From Octopus sinensis (lineage: Eukaryota): DNA of 19,738 nucleotides. Made by a program: the position numbers and the translations under genes. How positions within the stretch are numbered: the stretch's first letter is position 1; every line of letters starts with the position of its first letter. The stretch covers positions 1 to 19,738 of the forward strand of contig NW_021824154.1 of assembly GCF_006345805.1 (NCBI RefSeq). The letters are read 5' to 3'. The notes beneath the pieces were generated by a model. It made no database searches and had not been told where the DNA came from. It saw only the letters and a program-made list of their open reading frames with translations. Positions 1 to 19,738 of this stretch are shown here, piece by piece.

Positions 1-270
1 GTCCAGGGAGGCTTTGAACAAAGCGGTCGTCGGCATCTTCACCATCTCGTCTGGCAGCTTGTTCCACGGATCTGCAACCCGGACGGAGAAAGCTCCTCTC
101 CTTCGATTGAGATGAAATCGTCGCAGGTAGAGCTTTTCGGAATGACCCCGCAGCCGACGCTCTGGAGCAGGAGTTAAGAACAGCTCTTTCGAGAGGTTAC
201 ACTTTCCGCTTATGATGTTGTGGGCGAGAATGAGATCACCACGGCGGCGGCGTTTTTCAAGAGAATAACG
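1..270 (-). mobile_element. CR1-clade LINE fragment, C-terminal end of ORF2 (continues past the window edge)
   Basis: Minus-strand translation RYSLEKRRRRGDLILAHNIISGK...LRGHSEKL...RRGAFSVRVADPWNKLPDEMVK...FKASLD matches the CR1 ORF2 C-terminal pattern (SLE.RR.RGD; RGH..KL; FS.RV...WN.LP). Confidence 0.85.
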
Positions 271-288
271 TGTATGTGTATGTGTGTA

Positions 289-1057
289 GGGGTCGATGGG
301 TAAATTGTCATCGTTTTATATTTTCAATTTCGAGTATGCGCATTGTATTTTTTTTCATCTACAACACAGTATAGTAGTTCCCGTTTGGCACCGTCTGTGA
401 GAAAAACAGCACCATGACGCAATTCACACGGCCAGAAATTTGGAAACGACATGCTGTACTGCTTGTCATTCGCGCCGGAAGCTCCAATACGAACACTTCA
501 GATTTTTAGGGTTTCTTTCTGAGGACATGTATCGAGAGTGATAACAATCAAACATCCAGCCAACATCGTGGGGTTTGGAGTGATCACTAGCGATAGTGAC
601 GTTATGCCTCCATTCATCTTCGCACAAGGCCTCAGACTCAACACAGAGGTAGTGCTGCCCTGGGTCAAGGGGTTGGCTACTGGAAGACCCTGTCTGGCAA
701 CAGGATCCTGCACCACACAACACAAGCAGGAGGACCCAGTCATGGCTCTGAGATAATTTCTGCGAGCACATCGCCCGTTGTGGGGCGCAGTTGAGTGAGA
801 GACCAACAAAACTCCTTGTAACACCAAAGACGAACTGAATGCAAGGATCATAGCAGCATTCACAAACTTAAACAAATAGACCGTCCAGGAGGGCTGTAGG
901 AGATTCCGAAGTGGTCTAGACGCCGTGGTCGAAACCAATGGGGATTTTATTGAATAAATTTACTCTTTAATATTTGAAGATATTTCTCTGTAATTTTGGC
1001 AAATATATCTCTTAAAACGAGATGTCAGTGTTATTTTCCTTTTGCGTATTTGGACAT
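289..1057 (+). mobile_element. Degenerate, internally deleted Tc1/mariner transposon (maT/DD37D-like); transposase remnant about 414-957
   Basis: Starts after TA at 287-288. ATG at 414 (MTQFTRPEIWKRHAVLL), then KHPANIVGFGVITSDSDVMPPFIF, frameshifted WQQDPAPH, WGAVE*ETNKTP and terminal RFRSGLDAVVETNGDFIE* (TAA 955-957). Contains stops, frameshifts and deletions; no right TIR seen. Confidence 0.8.
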
Positions 1058-1088
1058 TGTATATATTATATAATATATATATATTATA

Positions 1089-1131
<43 letters not shown>

Positions 1132-1138
1132 ACACAGA

Positions 1139-1178
<40 letters not shown>

Positions 1179-1232
1179 CACATATGTAATATATATATAT
1201 AATATACATATATGTATGTATGTATATATATA

Positions 1233-1276
<44 letters not shown>

Positions 1277-1355
1277 ATATATATATATAATATATAATAT
1301 ATATATATTATATGTATATATATATGCGGGGTGCGGTGAATATATATATATATAC
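1058..1355. repeat. Compound (TA)n/(CA)n microsatellite
   Basis: Directly visible dinucleotide runs. Confidence 0.95.
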
Positions 1356-1643
1356 AAGACACTCACTTATACATATATTCCATATAGAGCTAGAAAGATG
1401 TACGTTTATACAAATACGCATACATAGGAGTGGACGAGTGTGTGTATGTGCGTGCGCCTATCCGTGAGTGTGTGGGTGTGTGTGTGTGTGGTGTTGATAT
1501 TCTATGGTTTTCTGCTTGAGGCCAGTATGAAGGACATCGACCTGTTTAGTGTCGGTATTTATTCTTTAAATTCTTCATCAAATAAACAATAATAAACCGC
1601 TGAAAGACGCTGGAATCATCTAGAGTGATTTTCCTTCTGGCAA

Positions 1644-1836
1644 GTGTGTGTCTGTGTGTGCGTGTGTCAGGTATTTGTATGTGTGTGTGTGTGTGTGTGT
1701 GTTTGTGTGTCTGTGTGCATGCACGCGTCTCTGCATGTGTGTATACATGTGTGTTTGTATATGTATAAATATACATGCATATACACAATACTCTACACAC
1801 ATGTATTATATATATATATATATATGAATATATATA

Positions 1837-1916
<80 letters not shown>

Positions 1917-2130
1917 ATATATATGAATATACATATATATATTAGAGAGAGAGAGACAGAGACAAAGAGAGACTCATACATAGTTACTCACATACACATT
2001 TACATAAGTATGCATGCATATTTGTGTATATACATACACACACACACACACATGTAGTTGTATATGCATATATATGTGAGTGCAATTATGTGCATGCGTG
2101 TGCTTATGTGTGTGTGCGTGCATATGTGTA
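1644..2130. repeat. Compound (TG)n/(TA)n/(GA)n/(CA)n microsatellite
   Basis: Directly visible dinucleotide runs. Confidence 0.95.
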
Positions 2131-2268
2131 TCATATTTGCCACATTCATGGAGATCATGCAAATCTCATGCAGCATTACTACATGATATGTTTTTCTATG
2201 CTACTTTCCTATATATACCGAACATATTACGTTGTGTATAGAAAGTCGAAAAGAGCCTCCCAGTTTTT

Positions 2269-2662
2269 CTGGCCGAAATGTTAGCACGCCGGGCGAAATA
2301 TTCAGCGGTATTTCGTCTGCCGCTACGTTCTGAGTTCAAATTCCGCCGAGGTCTCGATTTTGCCTTTCATCATTTCGGGGTCGATTAAATAAGTACCAGT
2401 TACGCACTGAGGTCGATATAATCGACTTATTTCTTTTTTCTGTCCTTGCTTGTCCTCTCTGTGTTTAGCCCCTTGTGGGTAGTAAAGAAATAGGTATTTT
2501 GTCTGTCTTTACGTCCTGAGTTCAAATTTACGCCGAGGTCGACTTTGCCTTTCATCCTTTCGGGGTCGATAAATTAAGTACCAGTTGCGTACTGGAATCA
2601 ATCTAATCGACTAGCCCCTTTCCCCCCAAATTTGCGGCCTTGTGCCTAGAATAGAAAAGAAT
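2269..2662 (+). mobile_element. Dimeric tRNA-derived SINE (family A): monomer 1 at 2269-2492, 5'-truncated monomer 2 at 2493-2662
   Basis: The B-box-like GAGTTCAAAT and the body GAGGTCGACTTTGCCTTTCATCCTTTCGGGGTCGATAAATTAAGTACCAGTT each occur twice (first copy slightly diverged). The same body recurs at about 6730, 11950 and 16518. Confidence 0.85.
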
Positions 2663-2677
2663 ATATATATATATATA

Positions 2678-3410
2678 TTGGGTCATCCCATAAATAATGC
2701 GGTTTTTTCAATTACATGAACAAAAGTCGGAGGGTGGCGGGATAAACTACCTACATCAACTTGCTATAAAGGCAGGTAGTAATTTTACCTTGTACTTATT
2801 CTTAGGGTAAATTCTGAAGAGTGCAGTTCGATTTTAACAGTTATTTTTCCAAAGCTATAATGGAAGTAACAAAGGAGCATATTCGGCATATTTTGCTTCA
2901 TGAGGCAACCACGCAACGGAAAGTGCAAGGTATATTAATGCAGTATATGGGAATTGGACAATAAGCATAAGCCAGTGTCAACGATGGTTCTAGAAATTCC
3001 GAGCCGGAAACTACAGGCTGGAGGATGAGCTTCGTCCTGGAAGTTCGGTAGAGCTCGACGAGGACATCCTGCAAACCCTGGTGGAACAAAATCATATCGT
3101 AACTGTTGAGGAACTTGCAGAGATACCTGGATTTGGTCATTCAACCATTCATCGACACCTGCGGGCCATCGAAAAAGTAAGCAAATTGGGTCATTGGGTT
3201 CCTAACAAACCTTCCGAGTCTAGTCGTGCACAGAGAGTGAATGTGTGCTGTTCTTTGCTGCCATGTTTCACGAATGAACCTTTTTTTGGACCGAATAGCG
3301 GCTGGTGACGAGAAATGGGTTCTCTATAAAAATGTCAAGCGCCGAAGACAGTGAGTAAGAAAAGGGAAAAAAACACCGGTACTTCAAGCTAAAGAAGGTC
3401 TTCACTCAAG
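2678..3410 (+). mobile_element. 3'-truncated mariner element; transposase pseudogene from ATG 2860
   Basis: TA then TIR-like TTGGGTCATCCCATAAATAATGCGG. Translation MEVTKEHIRHILL...QRWF*KFRAGNYRLEDELRPG...KLGHWVPNKP (WVPHEL motif)...GDEKWVLYKN (first catalytic D). Stops and frameshifts present. Confidence 0.9.
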
Positions 3411-3574
3411 TAAGGGATCTTTGGCAGGCAGGACACCCCACGCATTGAAACTTAAAGAGGTAACAAAAACAGGACATTTGATGATCATAGGACAGAGATT
3501 GGCAGAAGAAGAATTAGATATAACAGAGATGGTGTAAAACCATATGAGAAAAAGGTTTAGCGATAGTGTTCTCG

Positions 3575-3905
3575 GTGGTGGTGGTGGTGGTGATGGTGGT
3601 GGTGGTGGTGGTGGTGATGGTAGTGTTGGTAGTGGTGTTGGCGGCGGCGGGTGAGGGGGGTTGCTGGTGTTGGTAACCGTGGTGATGCTGATCGTCGTTG
3701 TTGTCATGGTCGTGGCCGTCATCGTCGCCCTTTAGTAATTACCGTTGAGGTGCACGCAGTGATGATGGTATTGAAGATTCACTGTTGATGCTGTTACTGC
3801 TATTGATGCTGTTGTTGCTGATGTCACTGTTGATGAATGCGTTGCAGTAGTAGTTGTTGTTGTTGCTGTTATTTTTGTTGTCGTAGTTCTTGTTTTTGCA
3901 GCTGA
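3575..3905. repeat. (GGT)n/(GTT)n/(GCT)n trinucleotide low-complexity tract
   Basis: Visible trinucleotide runs; they account for the poly-Pro/Thr ORF 3402-3722. Confidence 0.85.
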
Positions 3906-4012
3906 TACCATTGTGAAATAATAGCTACGATGCGTTGTTTTAAAACCATTTGAAATAAAGTGAAAAAGACGAAACCAACAACTAACTATATACGTACATC
4001 TATATTATAAGA

Positions 4013-4375
4013 TGTTACAAGGATGTTTGCAAAAGGGACATGAAGGCCTGCAACATCAATATTAGCGGTTGGGAGGCAATTGCCGGCAACCGTGGAGACT
4101 GGCGACGTACCGTAAGAGAGGGAATACACAGGAGTGACAGAGAGAGAGAGGAGAAATGGAAAGACAAGAAAAGACGTCAACAAGAAACTATGGCATTACA
4201 ACCAGCCAGGAACAGTCTTCGCTACATTTGCGGTACCTGCTAGAGGGAGTGTTTGTCCAGGATAGGACTACACAGCCACAGCAGGAAATGTATCAGGACA
4301 TGAAATGTAAAAGCCGGACTAGATTACTTTATGCGCAACTCCATTGTCTCCCGAGACAAAAAGGATGCCGACCTA
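4013..4375 (+). mobile_element. 5'-truncated RTE-clade LINE (ORF C-terminus plus 3' UTR) with 11-bp target-site duplication
   Basis: YKDVCKRDMKACNINISGWEAIAGNRGDWRRTVREG...YICGTC*RECLSRIGLHSHSRKC is the RTE terminal zinc-finger pattern. 3' stem-loop TTGTCTCCCGAGACAA. ATATTATAAGA occurs at 4002-4012 and 4376-4386. Confidence 0.88.
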
Positions 4376-4660
4376 ATATTATAAGAGACATGCTGAAAAC
4401 TGATCTCCGTCTAACTGCAGGTCACAACAAATATGTAGAAGAAGTGAAAAAAGGGGAGGAGAAAAACTTGTTGCTGTTGAGAGAGAGAGAGAGAGAGAAT
4501 TGTGTAAAAGATAGATAGATAGGTAGCGTTGCCACCATAGTAACTAACAAGGTTTGGTTACAACGCAACAAAAACTTCAAAAAATACTTTTATTATAACT
4601 CAGTCTACTTTTAGCTGGCCATCCCTGTCATTTCTCAGTCACACACACACGCATATATAT

Positions 4661-4702
<42 letters not shown>

Positions 4703-4704
4703 GT

Positions 4705-5009
4705 GGAGGCGCAATGGCCTAGTGTTTAGGGCAGTGGACTCGCGGTCGCAGGATCGCGGTTTCGATTCCCAGACCGGGCGTTGTGAGTGTTTATTGAGCG
4801 AAAACACCTAAAAGCTCCACGAGGCTCCGGCAGGGGGTGGTGATCCCTGCTGTACTCTTTCACCACTCTTTCTCCCACTCTTTCTTCTGTTGGCCTGCTC
4901 GCTTAGCCAGCGGGATGGCGTCATTCGATGGCTAAAACAATGCGAACGCATTGTGACCAGCGATGTGTAACAACATCTGATGGTCTGGTCGGTCACGTGA
5001 TCACGTGAT
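4705..5009 (+). mobile_element. Full-length tRNA-Arg-derived SINE (octopus OR-type by recollection)
   Basis: A-box TGGCCTAGTG, anticodon-arm-like GGAC-TCG-CGGTC, B-box GGTTTCGATTCC, about 230-nt body and 3' tandem (CACGTGAT)x2. Inserted in a (TA)n tract. Confidence 0.85.
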
Positions 5010-5067
5010 ATATATACATATATATATATTTATATATACGAGAAAGAAGCAACAAGAATGGATTGGT

Positions 5068-5158
5068 TTTTAGTACAATTGTTTCATACAAAGACAGGCT
5101 TTATTACAAGTTGCAAAAATTGCAGCAGATAAAAGTGTCCCGTACTCATCAGCTAAAA
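5068..5158 (-). ncRNA. Type I hammerhead ribozyme with intact core, in a ~120-bp element (about 5040-5165) embedded in (TA)n
   Basis: Minus strand reads UUUUAG-CUGAUGA-GUACGGGACA...UGUCUUUGUAU-GAAA-CAAUUG-UA-CUAAAA. It has a 6-bp stem I, exact CUGAUGA and GAAA core, long stem II, palindromic stem III ACAAUUGU and a GUA cleavage triplet. Confidence 0.85.
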
Positions 5159-5435
5159 TACAATATTTATATATATATACATATATATATATAAAATACA
5201 ATATTTATATATATATATATACATATATATATATAAATATATATATTTATTTATTTATACATACATACATAATACATATAATTTGAGTTGCGTTTATCTA
5301 TTTCTATGTGTATGTGTCAGTGTGTGTGTTTCTATATATCTTTGAACGTATCGGCAACGCAACACAGACTTTAAAACACTCTGTCGTTGTTGTTGTTGAA
5401 AGGTAAGTGCAGTGAGAGAGAAAGAGAATGTGTGT

Positions 5436-5502
<67 letters not shown>

Positions 5503-5503
5503 G
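5436..5503. repeat. (GATA)n microsatellite
   Basis: Perfect GATA run. Confidence 0.97.
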
Positions 5504-6138
5504 GATGTATTTGTCACCATAGTGACTAACAAGACTTTCACTGTATAACACTCTATATAGTACAGGCCGTACTATATGAGGTCCATTATAAATAGTTTCA
5601 ATAATAATGTCCGTATTATTGCTACCCACGGCTGACCAGATTATATAAAGCTAGATATTGTTCAATGAGTATAATTCTTCTATAGAATATAAGAAAATAA
5701 GTATTTTAAATAAATGTTAATTTTCAACATCATTCAAACTGTTATCAATCTTCACCTAGAAAGTCAATCTAAGCAGTATTTGGACAATTTATGAAGATAT
5801 ATGCACGATCAATAATTATTTTTACCGGCAGTGTAGCGACGGATACCAACCTAGTTATAATAACAATAAGGAGAATTTTCTATGCAGAATGAAACATATT
5901 TTGAAGTACAAGCGCAGTCGTTTACATCGGCCCCAGAAATAATAATGATAATCATGACAATAATAGCTATAATACTAAATAAATATTTAAAGGAAAAGGT
6001 CTCCCATAATTACGCGGATGCTAACTGGAGATAGAAGTGAATAATGAAAATGGGAAGGCAAATTATGATGGGCTATCAGATGAAGGCTTGCTATAAGAGA
6101 TAGATAAATAGATGGAGGGAAAGAATTTGAGAGAAAGA

Positions 6139-6186
6139 GAGGGAAGATGAAAGAGAGGGAAGATGAAAAAGAGGGAAGATGAAAGA
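6139..6186. repeat. 16-bp purine-rich minisatellite, 3 copies (GAGGGAAGATGAAAGA)
   Basis: Units at 6139, 6155 and 6171 with one mismatch. Confidence 0.85.
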
Positions 6187-6643
6187 GAGAGAAGGTGGGG
6201 AAAATGAAATTGCCGGCCAATTTTTTTTTGCTTTATGCTTTATCTAGGTGGGAGGTGATAGAAAAATAAAAATGGCAGAATAAAAAAAGAATAGAGAAAA
6301 TTGTATGTATGATGTTTTAATAAAGATAGCAAGCTATAGAGGGAATGAGAGCGATTGAGTGCGAAATGTTTAACGGACGCAATTTCAAGCAAATCGGGAA
6401 GAACGCAGATTTTGCAAGCAGTTATAATGGAGGAAATCAAAAGGAAAATAAAGAAATGATAACAATATAAACAATACAAACAATTTTGAAAACATAACTG
6501 AAAGTTGAAAGACGGAATTAAACGATAATTTTAAAATTTCGAATTATAGCAAAGAATATAAAATTAAATAAAGGTTATATAGTAGCATGCACAAGTCTGT
6601 ATTCAAGACTACCCGTCAATGTGTTATCTACATATATGTGTGT

Positions 6644-6875
6644 AAGACGGTGAGCTGGCAGAACCGTTAACACGCCGGGCGAAATGCGTAGCCGTATTTC
6701 GTCTGCTGTTACGTTCTGAGTTCAAATTCCGCCGAGGTCGACTTTGTCTTTCATCCTTTCGAGGTCGATAAATTAAATACCAGTTAAGCACTGGGGTCGA
6801 TGTAATCGTCTTAATCCGTTTGTCTGTCCTTTTTTGTCCACTCTACGTTTAGCCCCTTGTGGGTAGTAAAGAAAC
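6644..6875 (+). mobile_element. Full-length tRNA-derived SINE (family A monomer, tail type 1)
   Basis: A-box-like TGGCAGAACCGTTAA, B-box GAGTTCAAATTCC, shared body and tail ...GCCCCTTGTGGGTAGTAAAGAAA. Possible TSD ATATATGTGTGT at 6632-6643 and 6878-6889 (low complexity). Confidence 0.88.
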
Positions 6876-6928
6876 ATATATATGTGTGTGTATGCGTGGA
6901 GAGAGAGAGAGGGAGGGGGAGAGAGATA

Positions 6929-7565
6929 CGAGGATAGGCTGAAAAGTTCATATGCTGACTATGAAGGATTGATGCTAGAGCTGTGATATCTTACAAGTAT
7001 TAAGTTCAGCCCTTCTTATTAATAACTATATTGTTTCTTCCTAGGTAAACTGACATCTGACTGTTCAAAGAGGGCTTGAAAAATAACTGGTATCGCCTTG
7101 TCTTGTAAATCGAGAAAATTTGGCATCACATGTGTTATCAAGAACCTTCACAAAAGCGGTTTAGCTCCCAAGGACACTCACCCTTCTCTGATATGGTTGC
7201 TACGCTGGGGAATGACACTCCAACTTTATCAACTGTGCAAAAGTGGACAGCTGAATTTATAAGGTGAAGGGTGAGTCTTAAAGTTGACCCCAGATTTGGG
7301 GTTTGCGACTCGACTCCCGTCACTTAGGAAAATATTGATCGTGTTCACCACATGGTGGTGGCTGATTGACAATGAGCTATAAACTAAACAGTCAATGTTA
7401 TTAGCATATCCCATGAGAGTTGAGAATATTCTACTCAATGAACTTGGCACGACGAAGGTCTCTTCCAGTGGGTACCATGCCTTCTAACACCTGATCAAAA
7501 GCGCATGAGGCTGATCAGATAACGGGAAAATTTGATAGTTTGGGGCAGATCCAGCTGGTTCCCTC
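6929..7565 (+). mobile_element. Degenerate, 3'-truncated mariner element (irritans-like)
   Basis: TA then CGAGGATAGGCTGAAAAGTTC TIR-like start. Decayed frames read DMVATLGNDTPTLSTVQKWTAEF...ENIDRVHHMV...ENILLNELG...QWVPCLLTPDQKRMR (WVPxxL motif). Confidence 0.82.
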
Positions 7566-7605
7566 CAACCACAATTCTTCTGCGTCCATATACTATACTT
7601 TTATG

Positions 7606-7657
<52 letters not shown>

Positions 7658-7695
7658 CATATATAAAATAATATGTTACAATTACTCAATAGTCA

Positions 7696-7758
7696 AGATA
7701 AAACTCTGAGTTTCAGATGCCGAAGTGGAAATCCACAACACCATCTCTTCGGTTATCT
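7696..7758 (-). ncRNA. Type I hammerhead-like ribozyme, near-intact core
   Basis: Minus strand reads AGAUAA-CCGAAGA-GAUG...CAUC(U)-GAAA-CUCAGAG-UU-UUAUCU. 6-bp stem I, core with U4>C, quasi-palindromic stem III ACUC-A-GAGU and GUU triplet. Adjacent to a (TA)n tract. Confidence 0.65.
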
Positions 7759-8250
7759 GGCCATCTGAACAAACGCTATGAAAAATACCGTTATATAAAG
7801 GGAAATTACTGTGTTATAATTCTGCTACTTATATAAAATAAGATTAAAAGTTCATAGTAAACACGTAAACATGGCTAGTCATACGCTCACATGTGCGCTC
7901 GCGGACCCACGTGCGTACTTATAAGTCACTATGAAAACGTACACATCTTCACTCGCATTTTTTGCCAAATATATACGCATATATATACAAACTCATACAT
8001 ACACACATGCGTACCGTAAAAGTTCATACATACGTCTATATACGGACAAGCACAAGAAAAAACATGGTTAAAGGTAACAATACAGAAAAAACATAAGGAA
8101 GTATACAAAGCGTAAAAACCACGTTCATATATGGCCATGCCCTTATGCACTCATACAAACACACGCCCATAGATGTACATACCCACACATGTTTATATAC
8201 GCATACACACACACGCATATACAAAAAATGAATATACATATGCCCCGCCC

Positions 8251-8315
8251 CTCAAAATTCAGCAAAAACCCAAAGCTTATTTTTAGGCTTTGGTTTTTTG
8301 CTGAATTTTCTTGAG
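8251..8315. other. Near-perfect hairpin (26-bp stem, 4-nt loop)
   Basis: Arm 8254-8279 is the reverse complement of 8284-8309 except for one mismatch and one G-U pair. Confidence 0.85.
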
Positions 8316-8462
8316 AACACATTCTCCGTGGAAAATGACGATTTTGACGTCTATATCTAGCATACAGGCTGTCCACTTTTAGTGGTCATTCCTCTAAATT
8401 TTGTATATATAAATATATACATATATAAAAGATATTATATATAAATATATATACATATATAT

Positions 8463-8503
<41 letters not shown>

Positions 8504-8621
8504 GTATATATGCATGTGTATACATTTGTGTGTGTATTAATATATATTCTGATTGAATGCTCCGTGTGTTAACATGTACCTCCTTATGACAATGTAAACT
8601 TCATTTAATGAAGATACCCTT

Positions 8622-8705
8622 GGCCTGAAGTGTAGCCTACGGTATACACCTCGCTTGGGTATTTACTACTTTCAAGGTCCCGGTAGCTATGAAACATATG
8701 TAGCC
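8622..8705 (+). ncRNA. Type I hammerhead-like ribozyme upstream of the Penelope-like ORF
   Basis: GGC-CUGAAGU-GUAGC...GCUAU-GAAA-CAUAUG-UA-GCC. 3-bp stem I, core with A9>U, 59-nt stem II domain, palindromic stem III ACAUAUGU and GUA triplet. Confidence 0.7.
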
Positions 8706-9119
8706 CGGATTTCATCTACTCCATTCCTTAACCCTTGGATTTTTATTCGCATATCTGACAATCCTGGCTGCCTACCGTGAAATATAAAGTAATTTTTTTC
8801 AGCTTATCATACACCGATACGAAAAAATCCACAACTCTACGTCCCAATAAACCACTATTGTCTCTGGAAGTTGTTTTATATATTTTCTACGGATTGATTG
8901 AAACACCTTCTCACACCTTGCTCCTTCGACCTTATATTTATATATATAAAGCACACAATATACATAGTTTTAATATATTTTTAAAAAATTATTTTATAAG
9001 TGAAAGAGTATTGTGTTTGTCGACCGATTTCACTTTCACTAATCATGACATTGAATTTATTGTAATTTCGTATTTTCTTAAGAAGATTTTCGTCCATGTT
9101 CTTTGTGGTGAAGTTCCAA

Positions 9120-10630
9120 AAACATCTCGACACAGATATAAGTATGCATGCTAGGAAAACCCTACTTTTCAACTAGAATTCAACCTGGGTCAAACGAACT
9201 GACACTGAAGGCTCATTCGACGTTGCTGATATTTGCGACCTTATAGGGTTTTACATTCTGGACACTCTAGGTAATAAATTCCCCTCTGTCCACTTTGGCT
9301 TATATAGAGATGATGCATTAGCCATACTTTAGTTAGGCTTAGAAAAGACATCCTACACACCATACACGACCTCGCCCTTAAACTCACCATTGAAACTAAT
9401 CTCACCGTGGTGAGATGCCACGCTTCTTGGATGCCACGCTTGATCTAGATAGTGGTACCTATAGACCATACCGTAAACCGAATGATAGGCTATCGTACAT
9501 TAATACAGCCTCCTGCCATCCACCCATAATCTTAAAACATCTAATAAACATTATCAGTAAACAGATTTCGATCTTATCTTCAAATAAAGATATTTTCGAC
9601 GCAGCGGCTCCCGCTTACAATGAGGCGTTAGCGGCCAGCGGGTTCAAAGAGAATACAGTATATGTACCAAAGAAGGAAACGCCACCGCAATACCTTATGG
9701 TTAGCTTCCCGCTTCTCCCTAAACGTCCGGAAATGCATAGGTAAGATTTTTCTTAGGTTGGTTGATAAGCATTTCACACGATCACACAAATAGAGAAAGA
9801 TCTTTAACAGGCATAATTTAAGAATCTCTTTCAGTTGTGCACGTAATATCAAGGACAAATTACTTAGCACTCCTAAGCCACGGACAGAGGCAGATTTTAC
9901 ATGCAGGATTAGCAATGAATGCCCAGTGGACGGCCGATCTAACACCGAGGCTACAGTATACCAAGCAAAAGTAGCCTCAAACGGAAGCAGCACAAATATC
10001 AATAACATCGATGCCAAAATAGGGACACAAACTAAAATTTATGTTGGATCTTGTGAATCCAGATTTAAAGTTCGCCTGAACAACCACAGATCTTCTTTCA
10101 GAGTCCCGGAAAGACGCAACACAACAACACTTACAGCATACGTATGACGCCTAAAGGACGATCATACGCCCTTTAACATCAGGCGGAAATTATTGGAAAC
10201 TTGTGGACCCTATTGTAATGGAACAAGCCTGTGTAAATTGTATTTGGCAGAAAGATTTATAATCCTCATGAGCTCACATGAGCCAGGGGGGGGCTATCTT
10301 AACTCCAGCACGGAAGCCGTGGGGAATTGTCCACATTTTCGGAAATTTTTACTTCAAAATTGTAAAAACCTAGCTAAGAAGCGAAGGAAGACAACTTGCC
10401 CAGCCATATTTTTAAAGAGGATTATTTCTTGAACTATCACCGGCGTCTTTCTATTTTAAAACACACATTCTTTGCAGAGAACGGTTATCGTTTAAAGGAA
10501 CTGAAAAGTTCACGCTTGATGTGAAACCAATGGTTTTTTTATCTAAACTTACGCTAGACATACACAAATAAAATAACTGCACAATATTTTATAGGGTATG
10601 CTCTTCTCCTGATTTATGATATTGTAACGA
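9120..10630 (+). mobile_element. Penelope-like retroelement pseudogene: RT (YRDD) plus C-terminal GIY-YIG endonuclease, 5'-truncated
   Basis: HARKTLLFN*NSTWVKR...ICDLIGFYIL...GLYRDDAL (about 9297-9320); FLDATLDL..GTYRPYRKPN..LSYIN..SCHPP; CPVDG...VYQAKV...IYVGSCESRFKVRLNNHRSSF; CKLYLAERFII...LNSSTEAVGNCPH. Multiple stops and frameshifts. Confidence 0.9.
10497..10539 (+). ncRNA. Decayed hammerhead-like motif in the 3' region of the Penelope-like element
   Basis: GGAA-CUGAAAA-(15 nt)-GAAA-CCAAUGG-UU-UUUU. Core G8>A, quasi-palindromic stem III ACCA-A-UGGU, weak stems I and II. Confidence 0.4.
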
Positions 10631-11012
<382 letters not shown>

Positions 11013-11018
11013 GACAGC

Positions 11019-11138
11019 ACAGTTTCCGCCTACCAAATTCTCTCAAAGCACTGCTCGGCTTGGAGTTTTAATAGAAGATACTTGTTCCAGTTGCCGCGCA
11101 AACCACATCGTTGAAAAATGAGCGTATTGACTGCACGA
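11019..11138 (-). mobile_element. Degenerate SINE fragment, probably CORE-type
   Basis: Minus strand CAACTGGAACAAGTATCTTCTATT...TTTGGTAGGCGGAAACTG resembles the CORE motif ACCTTGGGCAAGTGTCTTC. Family assignment is from recollection. Confidence 0.5.
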
Positions 11139-11709
11139 GTGGCGGGGGGATATCACTTGTAAGATACTTGCGTCCTCCTACCGGGTGGAAGATGGGGCCA
11201 GATGTTTCCTTTTTCGTTGCGGCTCATCTAGAAACTTAGTCGACGCTAAGCAGATCTCTTTAAGTAAATCCTTCAAGGCTTTCTTTATTTCTTTTCCTTT
11301 TGTCGCAAAAAGGAAACGATCCACATGCAGTTAAGAGTAGTTGCGCAGCCGAAGCGTAATCAGTATGAAAGTATAAGGTTAACACAGCATCAAGGGACAA
11401 AATAGAAAAAGATCGGATTATGGATAATTAAGATGTGCCGCAAAGGAAATTATAGGATATATATAATCCAATGAATTATAGGATTATCATAATATAAAGG
11501 AATCCGAGAAAGGACAGGATTACTATTGGTTCCTTACACACAAATCCTAAACTATTTACAAGTGAGTTAGAAATTCGATACTTTCCTTAGGGGCACTTGT
11601 TACGCGAGTATAATTCAGGGGAAATGCAATTTATAAACAGGAATCGAAAATGAATAGCGATGCACTCGTTCGTTGAGATTATGCAGCCACAAATATGGCT
11701 CTCAAAAAA

Positions 11710-11741
11710 ATAATAATGTATTTATAATAATAATGATAATC

Positions 11742-11793
<52 letters not shown>

Positions 11794-11829
11794 TAATAAT
11801 AATAATAATTATTATTATTATTATTATTA

Positions 11830-11885
<56 letters not shown>
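11710..11885. repeat. (TAA)n switching to (TTA)n: self-complementary microsatellite
   Basis: Polarity switch at about 11808. Confidence 0.95.
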
Positions 11886-12072
11886 GCGACGAGCTGGAAG
11901 AATCATTAGCACGCTGGACGTCGCTGCGTTCTGAGTTCAAATTCCGCCGAGGTCGACTTTGCCTTTCATCCTTTCAGGCTCGATAAATTAAGTACCAGTT
12001 GAACACTGGGGTCGATGTCATCGACTGTCCGCCTCCCCAAAATTCCAGGCCGTAGGCCTATAGTGCAAAGGA
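11886..12072 (+). mobile_element. Family A SINE with deleted head segment, tail type 2
   Basis: GAGCTGGAAGAATCATTAGCACG, GAGTTCAAATTCCGCCGAGGTCGACTTTGCCTTTCATCC and tail CCCCAAAATTCCAGGCCGTAGGCCTATAG. Confidence 0.85.
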
Positions 12073-12132
12073 TTTTTGATCCAATCAACGGCCCTTATGA
12101 GCCCCATGGCTCGAGAAGGAACAAGCAAAAAC

Positions 12133-12311
12133 AAATTCCATGCCTGTATCTTTGCCGAAGAGTCGTACAATCTGTGTTAAGGAATCTTTCTTTCATTCTT
12201 ACTAAAAAGCTTCAGACCATCCATGTAGAGCAAATGGTTAATTTTTCCTTTCCTATTTCTACACTGATACTCCCACTTTGCTTTCCTCAATACTAAACTG
12301 AGTGGGATCAA
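12133..12311 (-). mobile_element. R4/Dong-clade non-LTR retrotransposon RT fragment
   Basis: Minus-strand translation LIPLSLVLRKAKWEYQCRNRKGKINHLLYMDGLKLFSKNER, then after a frameshift SLTQIVRLFGKDTGMEF. This matches the R4/Dong pattern HLLYMDDLKL...F..DIGMEF, with the catalytic DD mutated to DG. Confidence 0.78.
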
Positions 12312-12768
12312 ACATAATAATAATTATAATTATTATTATTATATTGTCTTTGCACAGCTTCTACTGCTGCAGATGTACTACGGTGTCAGTGAAAATAAAA
12401 GACTAAAGTAGTAAATGAAATAACGGGGCTGGGAGATACGGTGAGAGAGAGAAGAGAGAAAGAGCGAAGTGGGATAGACGTTGAAAAACAAGGGCAAGGA
12501 TACGAGTGACAGAGAAAAAGTTCCAAGGATATAATAATTGAATGACTAATAAGAAAAAGACTAAAGAGAGAGAGAGAGAAAAAGGCACAGACGGGCACAC
12601 AGGCAAAGAGACAGGCAAGGTAGCTAGTGTTATAAGGAAATGACAACAGTAAAAGGATACAAATGAAAGGCGTAAAGAAAAGTACCTCACAGTGAAATCA
12701 AATTTGTTTTCTGATTACCATGTAGTTGGAAAGTTTCAATAAGAAGCTAGAAACCATATTTTAGATAA

Positions 12769-12813
<45 letters not shown>

Positions 12814-12814
12814 A

Positions 12815-12849
<35 letters not shown>

Positions 12850-12858
12850 CTTATATAA

Positions 12859-12938
12859 AATATGTAAATCTTACTAGAAAAAAAAACGAATTATTAAAGC
12901 CTACACGGTCTAGCAAATTCTTATGAATTTCATTTCTA

Positions 12939-12974
<36 letters not shown>

Positions 12975-13079
12975 ATATATATGTATGTATGTATGTATGA
13001 GTGCGTGTATGGGTGTGTGCTTGCGTGTCTATATACATACATACACACACACACACAACACACACACGCACACATACAT

Positions 13080-13138
<59 letters not shown>

Positions 13139-13415
13139 TTATTTTTACGTATTTTTGAATTCTTATTCGTTCCCGTCCTTGTTTTGTATATATACATTCG
13201 AGGCTTTCTTCCAAGGAATCTAATGCGCTTGGCTTAGATTTTCCTTTGGGGCTGGCCAGGTCGGAGCAATCTCAAGATTAATCAGCCGAAATTGCGAGCA
13301 TGATCCGGTTCTGACTGAAGATTGAAGGCTTCGAATGTCTCGTCCGTGTTTTTTGTATCTTCTTGTAAATGTTTTGCGTTCTTGTCCCAGTTTGTATTTT
13401 TTTACATTACATACA

Positions 13416-13458
<43 letters not shown>

Positions 13459-13547
13459 GTGTGTGTGTGGTGTGGTGGTGTGGTGTGTGTGTGTTGTGCG
13501 TGTATGTATGTATATAGACACACAAGCACACCCATACACGCACTCAT

Positions 13548-13591
<44 letters not shown>

Positions 13592-13672
13592 TAGAAATGA
13601 AATTCATAAGAATTTTCTAAACCGTGTAGGCTTTAATAATTGCGGTTTTTTTTCTTGTACGATTTACATATT
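12859..13672. repeat. Large inverted repeat: arms about 12859-13135 and 13410-13672 around a ~275-bp core
   Basis: Unique AATATGTAAATC...GAATTTCATTTCTAATACAT and GAGTGCGTGTATGGGTGTG...GTCTATATACATAC blocks recur in reverse complement, in mirrored order with the intervening microsatellites. Confidence 0.92.
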
Positions 13673-14224
13673 CGAGACCAATTAATAAGCAGCTTCATTT
13701 ATTTTAGTATAGATTATCTTTTCTCAGTTTTCAATTACCCTGTAATTTCGTACAGTGGAGCAAACGTGCGTTCAAGAGTGTTTGAGTATTTATGAACATC
13801 CTACTTTACCCTAGGTAACAGTCTTTCCATGATAATTTTATTTAATATAGGTTTTTTTATTATTATTTCACCTTGTCTTGCTTATATTTTTTGTTTATGT
13901 ACTTTTTTACCCAAAAGTAAATCCTCCACAATTTTTGCAGCTCATCTTTGTTATGTCTCGAATTTGTCACACTTGCAGGAAGTAAAAACAAAATTAATAC
14001 AATTAATACCTCTGTTGCTGTTTGTTGTTGTTGTTGTTGTTTGTGTACTTATTATTATAGAGATGAAATGATTTTCTCACTCTTTTCACTTCTGTACGAT
14101 TGATGTACACAAAGGTGAAGCAAAAACAACCGGAAATCGAACCCTTTGTTCGGTGTCTGCCTAAGGCGAAGGTTATAATTACTAGGATAATTGAATATTG
14201 CTATCCTTTTGCCATAATCAGAAA

Positions 14225-14265
14225 TCATAATAATAATAGTTATCATCATCATCATCATCATCATC

Positions 14266-14334
<69 letters not shown>

Positions 14335-14401
14335 CATTATTATTATTATTATCATTATTATTATCATTATCATTATTATTTTTATTATCATTATTATAAT
14401 G

Positions 14402-14433
<32 letters not shown>

Positions 14434-14711
14434 TATTATTATTATTATTATTTATTATTATTACCATTATTATTATTATTATTATTATATTATTATTATT
14501 ATTATTTTACCATTATTATTATTATTATTATTACTATTAAATTATTATTATTATCATCATTATTATTATTATTATCATTTATTTTTTATTATTTTTATTA
14601 TCATTATTATAATAATAATAATTATTATTATTATTATTATTGTTATTATTATTATTATTACTATCATTATTTCTATTATTATTATTATTATTACTATTAT
14701 CATTATTATTA

Positions 14712-14773
<62 letters not shown>
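14225..14773. repeat. Long (TTA)n/(TCA)n tract with embedded (TAA)n segments
   Basis: Directly visible. Confidence 0.95.
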
Positions 14774-15322
14774 GAGTGAGAGAGCAGTGCATGCCATCAA
14801 AGTGACACTGGGGTAATATATACGAAGCCCAGTATACCCATCATGACTACCCGTCTGATAAGAGTACACCAGGCACATGCATCACAGCCATATGTGCGTG
14901 ACATGGTGATCTCATATCAAGATAAACAGCGCATGACCTCGCAGGTGGGGACCTGTTAGAATTTTCTTCTGGTCGAATAGTCAATCCCGCTCAAAAGGTC
15001 CCTAAATAAGGGCTGTTTAAGGATGTTGAACGAAACACCCACGTTTCCAGAGGTGAATTATTCAAACCCCAAAGAATCCCTCTCAACACATGGTTATGAT
15101 GCTCCCCCACTAATTCTGTTCGTGAACAGAGATGCACATATCGTCAGCCACTAAGGGACATGCTCAACTGGTTAAGCTCAAACAACTGACAAGCTAATCT
15201 GTGGTATTGAGCAGAATATTTGCTGTAGTCCATCTTTTATACCAAGATAAAACAATGTACATGATAACACTTCCAATCAGTTAAGATCAGAAGCCATGAG
15301 AGACTCTGCCTGGTACTACATG
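14774..15322 (-). mobile_element. Probable non-coding retroposon body ending in a (TAA)n tail
   Basis: A 550-bp complex block with no credible ORF; the minus strand ends ...GCACTGCTCTCTCACTCAATAATAAT. Its status as a repeat is from recollection of cephalopod sequence and is not provable within the window. Confidence 0.5.
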
Positions 15323-15427
15323 AGGCAAAGTCGACCTCAGCGGAATTTGAACTCAGAACGTAAAGACGGGCGAATGCCACTAAGCATTTCTCCCAGCGAG
15401 CTAACGATTCTGCCAGCTTGCTGCCTT
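15323..15427 (-). mobile_element. Family A SINE 5' part (left arm of inverted pair)
   Basis: Reverse complement of AAGGCAGCAAGCTGGCAGAATCGTTAGC...GAGTTCAAATTCCGCTGAGGTCGACTTTGCCT. Confidence 0.88.
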
Positions 15428-15471
15428 ATTATTATTATTATTAAAAATAATAATAATAATAATAATAATAA

Positions 15472-15511
<40 letters not shown>

Positions 15512-15531
15512 TAATAATAATAATAATAATA

Positions 15532-15564
<33 letters not shown>

Positions 15565-15669
15565 AAGGCAGCAAGCTGGCAGAATCGTTAGCACGATGGC
15601 AGAAATGCTTAGTGGCATTCGCTTGTCTTTACGTTCTGAGTTCAAATTCCGCTGAGGTCGACTTTGCCT
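15565..15669 (+). mobile_element. Family A SINE 5' part (right arm of inverted pair)
   Basis: A-box-like TGGCAGAATCGTTAG and B-box GAGTTCAAATTCC; truncated after GTCGACTTTGCCT. Confidence 0.88.
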
Positions 15670-16517
15670 TTATAGCGGTGTTAAACTACCTTGAGCTCTC
15701 TCTTAGGTTATATTATTATAGTATATCTCTATTTAGTTTTGTTGCAGTAATGTAATGCTATTTATTGTTTTCTATTGGGAAATAGATTATTTTATTTGGC
15801 TTTTTTGAGTAAGGGTGAATATAATGATTAAAACGTCACTTATAACTTAAGTGTTATCATTATACACAAATCCGAACTACAGTGTATAACGAATGGAGAA
15901 ATATACTTATGGAACGCTATAAATATTAACGACATGTATGTATAATATTTTCTTCGTGTTCATTTAACCGCTATAAGAAAATATAATTTAATGACTACAG
16001 AAATGCATATTTATTTATACTCAGTTGAAAAACAAACGTGAAGAGAAACATTTTCTTAATTAGTTTTATTATATAAATATAACATTTTATATTATGTACA
16101 TGTGAAAGGAAAGATAATTTTCGTCGTGTAGAAGTACGACTATATATTCACTAGCTAATTCATAAATCTAACTAATAGATTAATCAACAATTCAAAATAG
16201 ACTTGTGATTTTCTTTGAACATGGCATGAAAATCACCAATGTCTCAAAGGAGTGAATATTGTGGAGTTCAGTTACTTCCAACAAACACTAAAGTTTTCCC
16301 CCAAAATCCAGGGTTTTTATAACTGCTCAACGTGACTTAAAAGAATCGAAATCCATTACAAATATTCTTTACGTAACTTTTTAGAATCTTTATATGAGCA
16401 GTTATATTAAACCAATGGAAAAAAACGAAAATAATAATTCTTCGGCAATACGACATTATGTCATATTGCCAATTCGCGCTTTATTTCAAAAATTGGTTAA
16501 AATGGCTAATTGCTACA

Positions 16518-16595
16518 CCTTCATCCTTTCGGGTTCGATAAATTGAGATCGATGTAATTGACGATTTTCTTACCCCATATTTTTAGGCCTTGTGC
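16518..16595 (+). mobile_element. Family A SINE internal/3' fragment
   Basis: CCTTCATCCTTTCGGGTTCGATAAATT...GGCCTTGTGC matches the body and type-2 tail. Confidence 0.7.
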
Positions 16596-17460
16596 TTTCT
16601 ATTATTATTATTATTTATTTATTTATTTATTTATTTGTTCATTTATGTATTTATTTTTACTCAGCTTTTGTTGGGACTCCCGGAAACTTGCATACGTAGC
16701 GGGATTGCTAATTTCAGCCCACGGTACATGCTATCTATTCTTTTCGACTAATGTTTTCTTGATTATTATTATTGTTATCAGTAGTAGTAGTAGTAGTAAT
16801 TGTGGTGGTGGTGATGATGAGGTGGAGGAGAATGGGAAGCGGGAGGGTCATTGCGGAGTGTGTAAAGCTATGTTTAAAATTCGCTCCCAGTTTTACCAAA
16901 TATAATAGCATAAGGATAACCTATAAAGCAGGAGTCAGTCCTGATTTGGTTAGACTTGAATCTCCAAAATACTAGCAGGCACAATATGTGTACAAATGGT
17001 CCTAATACCATGAAACGAGATTCTTAAGTATGCTTAGGTATGGATTAATTAATTTTGAGATGATCAACTTGTGTAAATCACTAATTTAATTAGACTTTAA
17101 GATCCAGTAATGAGTTACATAGACAATTATTCCTTAGACACAAGTGATACTTAAATGAAAACTTAAGTAAAAAAACGGGTATGGAAACACAAATTAAGAA
17201 GTTTTACTTAGACACGTAATTAGGAATTAATTAGACTTTCTGCTCCAGCGTCAATTACTTCGTAGAAATGTTCACTAAACCCAAGCGAATCTATTCATGT
17301 CACTTAAGAACCATTTTAGGTACGGATTTCTAATTTAAGAAGCATTTTCTCCTAATCACTATACACTAATTAAGAAGAAACATGCAGAAACACTGTTTTC
17401 AAGCTACGTGAGGAATGCAACATACAAACGTGTCTTAGACCCAAAACGTGTTTTGACAGA

Positions 17461-17527
17461 GTTTTCTATCTTGAGATCTGGGCCAACCCAGATTCCTAGC
17501 AACTTAATCGGGCCTTCCATCCATTTT
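17461..17527 (-). mobile_element. Probable L1/Tx1-clade LINE ORF2 fragment
   Basis: Minus-strand translation KWMEGPIKLLGIWVGPDLKIEN resembles the post-RT K.LG motif of Tx1-like elements. Confidence 0.5.
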
Positions 17528-17671
17528 ATTTACAGAACTTCATCATTATGCAGCATCCACAGGAACCAGCTTGTACGAGAGGTTTTTGTCTTTAAGGGTA
17601 TCATTATACGTCTGGTTGGAAGTCCAACAGCACGAGTTCTTTTAGAAGGCTTAGCGAAAGGGAAAGGCTCA

Positions 17672-17726
17672 TTTCTTTATTAGCCGCAAGGACCCAAAAT
17701 AGAGGGGGACAAACAATGACAGACAA
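17672..17726 (-). mobile_element. Isolated family A SINE type-1 tail
   Basis: Reverse complement TTGTCTGTCATTGTTTGTCCCCCTCT...CCTTGCGGCTAATAAAGAAA matches the tails at 2440-2490 and 6820-6874. Confidence 0.7.
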
Positions 17727-17808
17727 CACAAAATGTTGGGGTACATAAAATGTATAATGAAAATGTATGTGACAATAAAATCGAATGAAAAGAAATGCAA
17801 TGGCTTAC

Positions 17809-17880
17809 GAGCCCTTCCAAAGCTCGCAGTTCCATTTTACTGTTCATATAATGTTTGATACAAACTTGAAAGCAGTGTTG
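17809..17880 (-). CDS. Candidate 72-nt internal host exon (QHCFQVCIKHYMNSKMELRALEGL if phase 0)
   Basis: Acceptor TATTCTTTCTTTCTCCAG, donor GTAAGC, length divisible by 3, only one frame open, non-repetitive context. Protein not recognised. Confidence 0.35.
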
Positions 17881-18259
17881 CTGGAGAAAGAAAGAATAGG
17901 TAGATTGGTAGAGTTATTCCCCGACAAAAGTGAAGGATTGCTGCGATGTGTGTGAATCTGAGACGGGACTATGTTGAATAAAATCATAATTTATCCTCCT
18001 GTATATTTTTTAACCAAAGCCAGTATGATTTCAGCACCCCTTCGTATAATACCTTATGAATTTTAGAAACAGTCCTTGAAGATATCGTTCCAGTATTCTA
18101 TACTCAGCGACGAACACCACTGAGAAAAATATTCAATGGCTTTTATATCGACGTGATTTTCAATGTGATATCAATGTGATTTTCTTTCCATCAGAACCAT
18201 AACAATACTAAGAGGGCGATGAAACATAAACAGAAAGAAACATGTACATATTACAAGTT

Positions 18260-18537
18260 TCACACTCCCTTTCTCTCTTTCTCTCACTTTGTGTGTGTCT
18301 CTTTCTTTCTTTTTCTCTCTGTCTCTGTCTCTCTCTGTCTCTCTCTTTCTCTGTTTCTCCCTTTCTCACGTACACTCTCTCTTCTCTCCATTTCAATCAT
18401 TCACTCATATTCTTCATGTCACCATTTCTCCATATTTCAGTTTTTCTCACTCTCTCTCTCCCTTCTCCCTCTCCCTTCTCTCTCTCTCTATATATATATA
18501 TATACACACCCACACACATATATAGACACACACACAT

Positions 18538-18578
<41 letters not shown>

Positions 18579-18652
18579 GTGCTTTCTCTTGCCTAGAAAT
18601 CGCCGTAGTCTCACAATCCCTCATTCACTACACTAACTTACACATTCTCTGC

Positions 18653-18698
<46 letters not shown>

Positions 18699-18722
18699 GA
18701 CCACCACTATTACTACTACTAT
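18260..18722. repeat. (CT)n pyrimidine tract, (TA)/(CA)n and (CTA)n microsatellites
   Basis: Directly visible. Confidence 0.9.
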
Positions 18723-18900
18723 GACCACTAATACATTCATATATACATATATAAGCAAACACACATATGTATATACGTATAATATATGAGTATATTTATC
18801 CTATGCGTATATACCTGAATATATACCCCATATAAAAATATAAGTACACCCTATATGTAACTACTTTTATACACAACTCTCTATAAATACTCATACCCAA

Positions 18901-18917
18901 TAGATATATATATATAT

Positions 18918-18985
<68 letters not shown>

Positions 18986-18997
18986 ATGTAGATATAG

Positions 18998-19035
<38 letters not shown>

Positions 19036-19139
19036 TATATATACCAGTTCGCGTGTCTGTGTGTATATACATGTGTGTGTACGTATATATGTATATACAT
19101 ATACTTGTATGCGCACACACACACATATATATATATACA

Positions 19140-19194
<55 letters not shown>

Positions 19195-19280
19195 CTGTGC
19201 GCGTGTCTATTTACATGTGGTATATATATGTGTGTGTGCGTGTGTGTGTACGCGTGTATATGTATATATATGTATATACA

Positions 19281-19325
<45 letters not shown>

Positions 19326-19400
19326 ATATGTATTATATATATATATAGTAAATATATATATATATATATTATATATATATATTGCATGTATGCATGTACG
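18901..19400. repeat. (GATA)n/(TA)n/(TG)n compound microsatellite
   Basis: Directly visible. Confidence 0.95.
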
Positions 19401-19629
19401 TGCGTATGTATCCTATCTGTTTTAGCCATAACCACATTCCACTCCAGATCTTTTGATGTTTGCCAATTCTCGCTAATTTCACTCTCAACATACTTTCATC
19501 ACATTTACTGCTTCACCCTTGTTATTGTTTAACGTCGTTGTTCTCGTGGTTGTTGCTGGTATTGTATTTGTTGGGTTTTTTCTCCTCTTTATTAGTTTTT
19601 GTTGTTACTATTGATATTACGGTTGTTGT

Positions 19630-19673
<44 letters not shown>

Positions 19674-19738
19674 ACTACTACTACTACTACTACTACTACT
19701 AATATTATTATCATTATTACCATTATTATTATTATTAT
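19630..19738. repeat. (ACT)n then (TTA)n microsatellite
   Basis: Directly visible. Confidence 0.95.

Follow-up and report, generated by a model that had tools for sequence, protein, structure and literature searches.

Penelope-like elements (PLEs) of the C-terminal EN+ type make up the Hydra clade, which includes Hydra-1_Obim of Octopus bimaculoides (Craig et al. 2021, PMC8557442). Members are described there as encoding an RT followed by a CxCx5C linker and a GIY-YIG domain, with RWK and DKT motifs and a sense-oriented hammerhead near the 3′ end. The same account gives (TA)n targets, a near-palindromic stem III, inverted 5′ copies and a one-ended tail, the legend to its Fig. 2 noting that the tail is often confined to one end. 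The pLTR hammerheads of metazoan PLEs (Cervera and de la Pena 2014, PMC4209133) are reported to be of type I, to lie in both flanking repeats and to have a palindromic helix III; most are single motifs of truncated copies, and close opposite-strand pairs also occur. According to that report, a single minimal PLE hammerhead is inactive and dimers are weakly active. Non-LTR retrozymes (Cervera and de la Pena 2020, PMC7229834; Li et al. 2026, 10.64898/2026.07.22.740005) are likewise described as type I, low in GC and of PLE origin, and for Poseidon internal RT starts, an uncleaved template and protein-assisted cleavage have been reported (PMC11167929). The literature already covers palindromic stem III hammerheads at PLE ends, solo motifs left by truncated copies, insertion at TA targets and a Hydra family in octopus.

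The DNA examined here, referred to as the window, is a 19,738 nt stretch of the Octopus sinensis genome (contig NW_021824154.1, positions 1 to 19,738). On its minus strand it carries a type I hammerhead with an exceptionally long second arm, for which self-cleavage is predicted from the sequence. The hammerhead occupies 91 of the 124 nt of an insert that sits in (TA)n, in agreement with a preliminary description of a small insert almost filled by a ribozyme. We consider it very likely that this insert is the 5′-truncated end of a 4.6-kb Hydra-clade element, likely inserted by target-primed reverse transcription in a TA microsatellite, with a hammerhead whose activity is likely confined to the full-length RNA of the parent. 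Direct support comes from identity to ORF-bearing copies, a constant 3′ end combined with 5′ ends that vary, insertion at TA, a pair of hammerheads around the ORF in full-length relatives, and conservation of the core and stems. The features of the locus are as follows.

5039 to 5162, minus strand: very probable 3′ end of a Hydra-clade Penelope-like element, 5′-truncated (pLTR remnant, 124 nt), all 124 nt being 100% identical to the ends of L032 and L033, two copies that bear the ORF
5068 to 5158, minus strand: type I hammerhead motif, 91 nt, from the sequence and a core invariant in 14 relatives except at position 7
5153 to 5158, minus strand: stem I, 5′ strand, pairing with 5068-5073 (6 bp), with two-sided changes in 2 of 6 pairs
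5146 to 5152, minus strand: core CUGAUGA, from the sequence and the comparison of 14 relatives
5086 to 5145, minus strand: stem II domain, 60 nt, with a 7-bp basal helix (G-U closing pair), a middle helix and an apical hairpin, from a constrained fold (-11.5 kcal/mol) and pair counts
5075 to 5085, minus strand: GAA (5083-5085) and the 8-nt self-complementary stem III ACAAUUGU (5075-5082), the palindrome being retained through an A-U/G-U/G-C change
5073 to 5074, minus strand: predicted cleavage site, 3′ of A17 (5074), by hammerhead numbering
5068 to 5073, minus strand: stem I, 3′ strand, from the sequence and pair comparison
5039 to 5067, minus strand: terminal segment up to the short 3′ end, which lies 35 nt beyond the cut and is a putative reverse-transcription start site, from the 3′ end common to copies and 118 exact matches of a 27-nt piece
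5026 to 5038, no strand: left copy of a probable 13-nt target-site duplication in (TA)n, equal to 5163-5175 including a non-periodic TTT and, being of low complexity, of moderate weight
5163 to 5175, no strand: probable 13-nt target-site duplication, right copy, the same 13 nt as 5026-5038
5154 to 5271, no strand: 38-bp period repeat duplicating the 5′ junction (~9 nt of element plus TA flank), from TRF and the sequence

The core (CUGAUGA and GAAA), the 6-bp stem I, the 60-nt stem II domain with its G-U closure, the palindromic stem III (5082-5075) and the cut between 5074 and 5073 had all been proposed in the preliminary description, and each was found on the minus strand, the coordinates given there being exact and the cut agreeing with A17 at 5074. 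The window hammerhead has CUGANGA, GAAA and NUH at a three-way junction, and the G10.1-C11.1 closing pair expected of type I is G-U at this copy. When the flank 5510-6100 was used to look for an empty allele or a duplicate of the locus, only the window itself and repeats of 69-87% identity were recovered. A SINE-like element with a tRNA-like head (4700-5007, plus strand), flanked by a short TA-rich duplication, lies in the same TA tract.

A covariance-model search had been proposed as a check on the motif, and Rfam returned no hammerhead model among the 150 matches listed of 155 at E ≤ 5, the matches being otherwise microsatellite-driven noise from miRNA models. In folding, the 91-mer was no more stable than shuffled sequences (z -0.10) and the hammerhead was not its minimum free energy (MFE) structure, though the inner 5-bp hairpin of the stem II domain is present in the MFE fold; three cuts folded without constraint (z -0.10, 0.73 and -0.68) gave no stability signal. 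The case for the hammerhead therefore rests on comparison. A descriptor scan, the other type of search proposed, produced 178 matches, many of them redundant copies (157 loci, 687 kb), and none in each of five block-shuffled sets, hence the motif is not due to chance.

For the comparison, 14 variants were picked for diversity and for bearing the motif, and these are mutually related. Stem positions were paired in 89% of cells across these 14 related sequences, against 33-50% in slid controls, and two-sided changes were found in stems I, II and III. The changes in stem I run from U-A through U-G to C-G and from A-U through G-U to G-C, and that in stem III from A-U through G-U to G-C. The closing pair of stem II is G-U in eight relatives, G-C in three, A-U in two and another combination in one, and the middle helix of the stem II domain includes two poorly kept pairs. 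Stem covariation, which had also been suggested as a check, was found by one measure and not by another: the score for the 14 related sequences was 0.198, compared with 0.157±0.012 for shuffled sets, and was reached in 0/500 shuffles, whereas the count of two-sided pairs (5) showed no excess (164/500 shuffles).

The inner four bases of stem III are self-complementary (Watson-Crick or G-U) in 177 of the 178 descriptor matches, which fall into eight lineages with unrelated-looking stems I and II. The descriptor demanded only AC....GU in stem III, and the eight lineages differ in the inner sequences. As the inner pairs cannot form within one strand, this argues for selection on the dimer. The computed energies agree with this, at -32.6 kcal/mol for a double hammerhead, -21.4 for a pair of monomer hammerheads and -28.0 for a pair of MFE folds, although the active fold is not the MFE structure for either the monomer (-10.7 versus -14.0) or the dimer (-32.6 versus -36.7). 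A lone hammerhead of this kind is expected to cleave poorly. The earlier view that this is a Penelope-like type I hammerhead with a stem III palindrome suited to a dimer was right.

An identical 124-nt end was found in L032 and L033, in the sense orientation and downstream of RT, the CxCx5C linker and GIY-YIG, the last of these being recognised in L032 by Pfam (PF01541, E 8.6e-05). A relative, L134, has an unbroken frame of 947 aa that encodes an RT and, at its C-terminus, GIY-YIG, and includes RWK, DKT, CxCx5C, CxxC and CxH, with no CCHH; the RT part of L033 and the EN part of L032 share 83% and 87% identity, respectively, with the L134 protein. A Pfam search with the whole L134 protein found nothing at E ≤ 0.01, and the Hydra motifs (RWK, DKT, CxCx5C, CxxC and CxH around conserved E and N, no CCHH) were identified by eye in the translations of L134, L142 and L146. 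The parent is very probably a Hydra-clade PLE, an assignment made by motifs and not by a tree, and the sense hammerhead in the pLTR and the (TA)n insertion conform to that clade. In full-length relatives, two sense hammerheads flank the ORF at a spacing of 4,630 nt in L135, 4,723 nt in L142 and 4,769 nt in L148, and the tail sequence is therefore the start of the 5′ leader. An antisense orientation of the hammerhead relative to the ORF was considered and rejected, as L030 is an inverted arm and L033 shows the sense orientation. Among the loci retrieved, none was a full-length copy with both an intact frame and a 100% identical hammerhead.

When an RT piece was used as the query, the 150 candidates scored of 10,889 shared 62-100% identity. 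Database homologues numbered 32, mostly unnamed and with 32-39% identity, the exception being the partial match P0013. This annotated octopus ankyrin-repeat protein shares 68% identity over 42% of the RT query region, and is a case of a PLE fragment lying inside a gene model, perhaps through an annotation artefact.

Copy number had been named as a further check, and an 85-nt piece of the motif was found unchanged 142 times in the 2.72 Gb genome; from these identical hammerheads, the family is young. To define the ends, 129 arms were classified in 84 insertions at 91 of 192 loci, one part of the loci being biased towards tail-bearing copies. The 84 insertions stop at a common 3′ position, which lies 35 nt beyond the predicted cut, and their upstream reach varies from 27 to >3,500 nt. 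A second 3′ end further on defines a tail of ~119 nt. In simple inverted insertions the short end (+35) is paired with the long end (about +154) in 40/40 cases, and 38 of 42 single-arm insertions have the short end; on closer inspection, a small opposite arm was seen in three of the four long singles and three of the 38 short singles. TA flanks make target duplications unreadable in most other copies.

The constant short/long pairing suggests that a single RNA serves for priming on both strands of the target. Inverted insertions arising through stem III dimerisation of two RNAs were disfavoured, as two independent RNAs should produce short-short or long-long combinations as well, and the 84 insertions included no such case. 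An excess of 5′ ends where the hammerhead cuts, which would be a trace of cleavage in vivo, was also considered and rejected; four insertions have arms of 31-40 nt and none can be placed cleanly at the cut, the site is spanned by a 4-nt palindrome, and the numbers are too small. Contigs from four sequencing runs, three of them presumed to be RNA, covered 28-30 of 30 bins of L135 but carry no start or end sites, and weigh neither for nor against expression.

The family shares with the Hydra clade, as described by Craig et al., the domain order, the RWK and DKT motifs, the sense hammerhead, the (TA)n targets, the near-palindromic stem III, the inverted 5′ copies and the one-ended tail. The G-U closing pair is found in two published families and A17 in 12 of the 26 rows of File S2 (PMC8557442). 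However, the unit is 4.6-4.8 kb (4.63-4.77 kb between hammerheads), with Asn-rich inserts and a 3′ UTR of about 1.4 kb, compared with a length of "generally <3 kb" that is given for the clade as a descriptive, non-diagnostic trait. The stem II domain is 56-60 nt in the family versus 10-24 nt in the 26 published Hydra rows, and the tail is about 119 nt versus 30-40 bp (PMC8557442). The family is distinct from Hydra-1_Obim, the hammerhead of which is listed with a 22-nt stem II domain (PMC8557442). Type I hammerheads in both flanking repeats, the palindromic helix III, the prevalence of single motifs of truncated copies and the close opposite-strand pairs are shared with the metazoan PLE pLTR hammerheads of PMC4209133. 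The differences from those are that the motif here is not minimal, with an 8-nt palindrome and a very long stem II domain, and that it has G10.1-U11.1 for the conserved G-C and lacks the extra base after position 9. As in Poseidon_Ac of green anole (Frangieh et al. 2024, PMC11167929), two classes of 3′ end past the hammerhead define a tail and the targets are AT-rich. In contrast to what is reported there, the starts here are about 119 nt apart, the hammerhead does not overlap a start codon, and the pairing of short with long ends in 40/40 inverted insertions contrasts with the lack of a strand difference for Poseidon_Ac in vitro.

The departures of the family are thus a 60-nt stem II domain with compensatory changes that is missed by Rfam, a tail of ~119 nt, and the 40/40 short/long inverted pairing. 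In the literature, as covered by titles and the starts of abstracts and with Repbase, Dfam and subscription journals outside that scope, no description of the window family or of a long-stem-II cephalopod PLE hammerhead was found. The window locus itself is an ordinary truncated transposon copy and not a new mini-element. The family is useful in being young, with near-intact relatives and two measurable departures from described Penelope-like elements. Its long stem II domain and two widely spaced 3′ ends in fixed pairing bear on the role of the hammerhead in Penelope-like transposition, and also on the origin of inverted copies and tails.

From the anatomy of the copies and from PMC11167929 and PMC4209133, a mechanism can be proposed for insertion of the truncated Hydra-clade end. 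The GIY-YIG nuclease would nick (TA)n, and RT would start inside an RNA that had not been cleaved, at a position 35 nt beyond the hammerhead cut, with a second start about 119 nt further on giving rise to the tail. At the window copy, synthesis would have halted after 124 nt, with the end joined via TA-like microhomology and a 13-nt duplication left behind. The 8-nt palindrome could form only 2 bp in a monomer and 8 bp between two hammerheads, and in a full-length or tandem transcript the hammerheads at the two termini would pair via stem III and cleave together to yield unit-length RNA, perhaps assisted by the element's protein. The window copy has no hammerhead partner in cis and is likely to be an inert passenger.

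An alternative is that the motif is kept mainly as a structure for RNA dimerisation or protein binding, next to the sites where RT starts, and that it cleaves little or not at all in vivo. The uncut hammerhead junction retained in all copies long enough to include it fits this view. It is also favoured by the weak cleavage reported for metazoan PLE hammerheads (PMC4209133), and by the Poseidon results, in which insertion in vitro was described as unaffected by hammerhead mutants and no reads ended at the cut (PMC11167929); moreover, catalysis alone leaves the long stem II unexplained. However, invariant catalytic positions with a variable position 7, as seen in the 14 relatives, are what is expected under selection for catalysis, and a mainly structural role appears unlikely.

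It is also possible that both terminal hammerheads cut and that the unit-length RNA is ligated to a circle, which serves as the insertion template, as in the model of Cervera and de la Pena. Two hammerheads lie around the ORF, one unit apart, and in a circle the junction would be re-formed, with the tail provided downstream of it. However, uncleaved read-through or tandem transcripts would yield identical products, and Poseidon is reported to use unprocessed RNA in vitro (PMC11167929), making a circular template rather improbable.

The preliminary description had left a choice between a minimal non-coding ribozyme retroposon and a solo pLTR. The latter is close to what was found, whereas the former, which would be a non-autonomous, retrozyme-like element multiplying as a 124-nt unit, did not hold, as lengths are continuous into the coding element. 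Three single-arm insertions (L001, L002 and L183) do start at 124-125 nt, a point that lies just upstream of stem I in a TA-like internal stretch, and a genuine non-coding tandem hammerhead family is present in the same genome. However, the other 39 of 42 single-arm insertions have other lengths, and 5′ start clusters of similar size occur at about 205-209 and 546-548 nt. All clusters have their start in internal stretches that are TA-like, a pattern indicative of joining by microhomology and not of a discrete family. The first 30 exact matches in genome order have the same spread of lengths, with one at 125 nt. No tandem 124-nt array was found in the window (using TRF) or in the 84 insertions, and the window copy is identical to the ends of long copies. 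Retrozymes have in common with the present copy a type I hammerhead, low GC and a PLE origin, but are described as non-coding tandem units of about 170-400 nt with a hammerhead in each (PMC7229834; 10.64898/2026.07.22.740005), whereas the window holds a single 124-nt piece, the truncated end of a coding element. Independent multiplication of a 124-nt unit is therefore very unlikely.

Cutting of a minus-strand host pre-mRNA by the window copy, also raised earlier, gained no support and is very improbable: though the core is intact, many identical copies could give a partner in trans and an intronic position may apply, no cellular exon or host gene was recognised by inspection of the 43 frames of ≥90 aa in the window, stem III of the monomer is weak, and no locus-specific selection is visible at a copy identical to 141 others.

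Beyond the truncated Hydra-clade end and its parent, hammerheads with long second stems recur in the genome. A separate non-coding family with a 594-nt unit (L034:5076-5669; L193-L204) occurs in tandems of up to three or more and in inverted pairs. In the hammerhead of each unit the stem II domain measures 67-76 nt and stem III is palindromic, the longest stop-free frame is 66 codons, and 40/40 scored matches share 99-100% identity; from its sequence, this family looks like a true retrozyme. A sister Hydra family (L146, L148, L149, L028 and L055), with about 64% aa identity in RT, also has a palindromic stem III, and its stem II domain of 51-60 nt is unrelated in sequence to that of the window family. 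Further hammerhead families with stem II domains of 16-68 nt and stem III palindromes of 8-12 nt were found in flanks (L011:2761, L026:391, L055:2415, L110:38, L112:3390, L077:2879, L085:5821, L135:2104 and L079:457). No similarity to the L134 or L146 proteins was detected in the available DNA upstream of 13 of the other long-stem hammerheads. Craig et al. list Naiad "half-core" cases, one of them in octopus (PMC8557442), and these might be such long-arm motifs.

A broader proposal, which we put forward only tentatively, is that octopus genomes have seen a radiation of active, obligate-dimer hammerheads with a long stem II, in Hydra-clade elements and the 594-nt family, that was missed by Rfam and by short-spacer descriptors. 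The long arm would be a conserved protein-binding or gating domain, and the short/long pairing would reflect a dimeric RT priming both strands at two fixed sites of one RNA.

An older, broken Hydra-type element was found elsewhere in the window (9100-10630, plus strand), with RT pieces of 35-41% aa identity to L134 and an end in (TA)n. The decayed hammerhead at about 10497-10545 has a 20-nt upstream flank equal to the flank listed for Hydra-1_oBim (PMC8557442). A TA-bounded inverted repeat at about 12860-13660 (arms at about 12860-12935 and 13590-13660), with a partial hammerhead-like core near 13313-13340, is probably another PLE end. The regions at about 300-1000 and 2690-3410 of the window contain what we take, from their motifs, to be decayed remnants of a mariner-like transposase.
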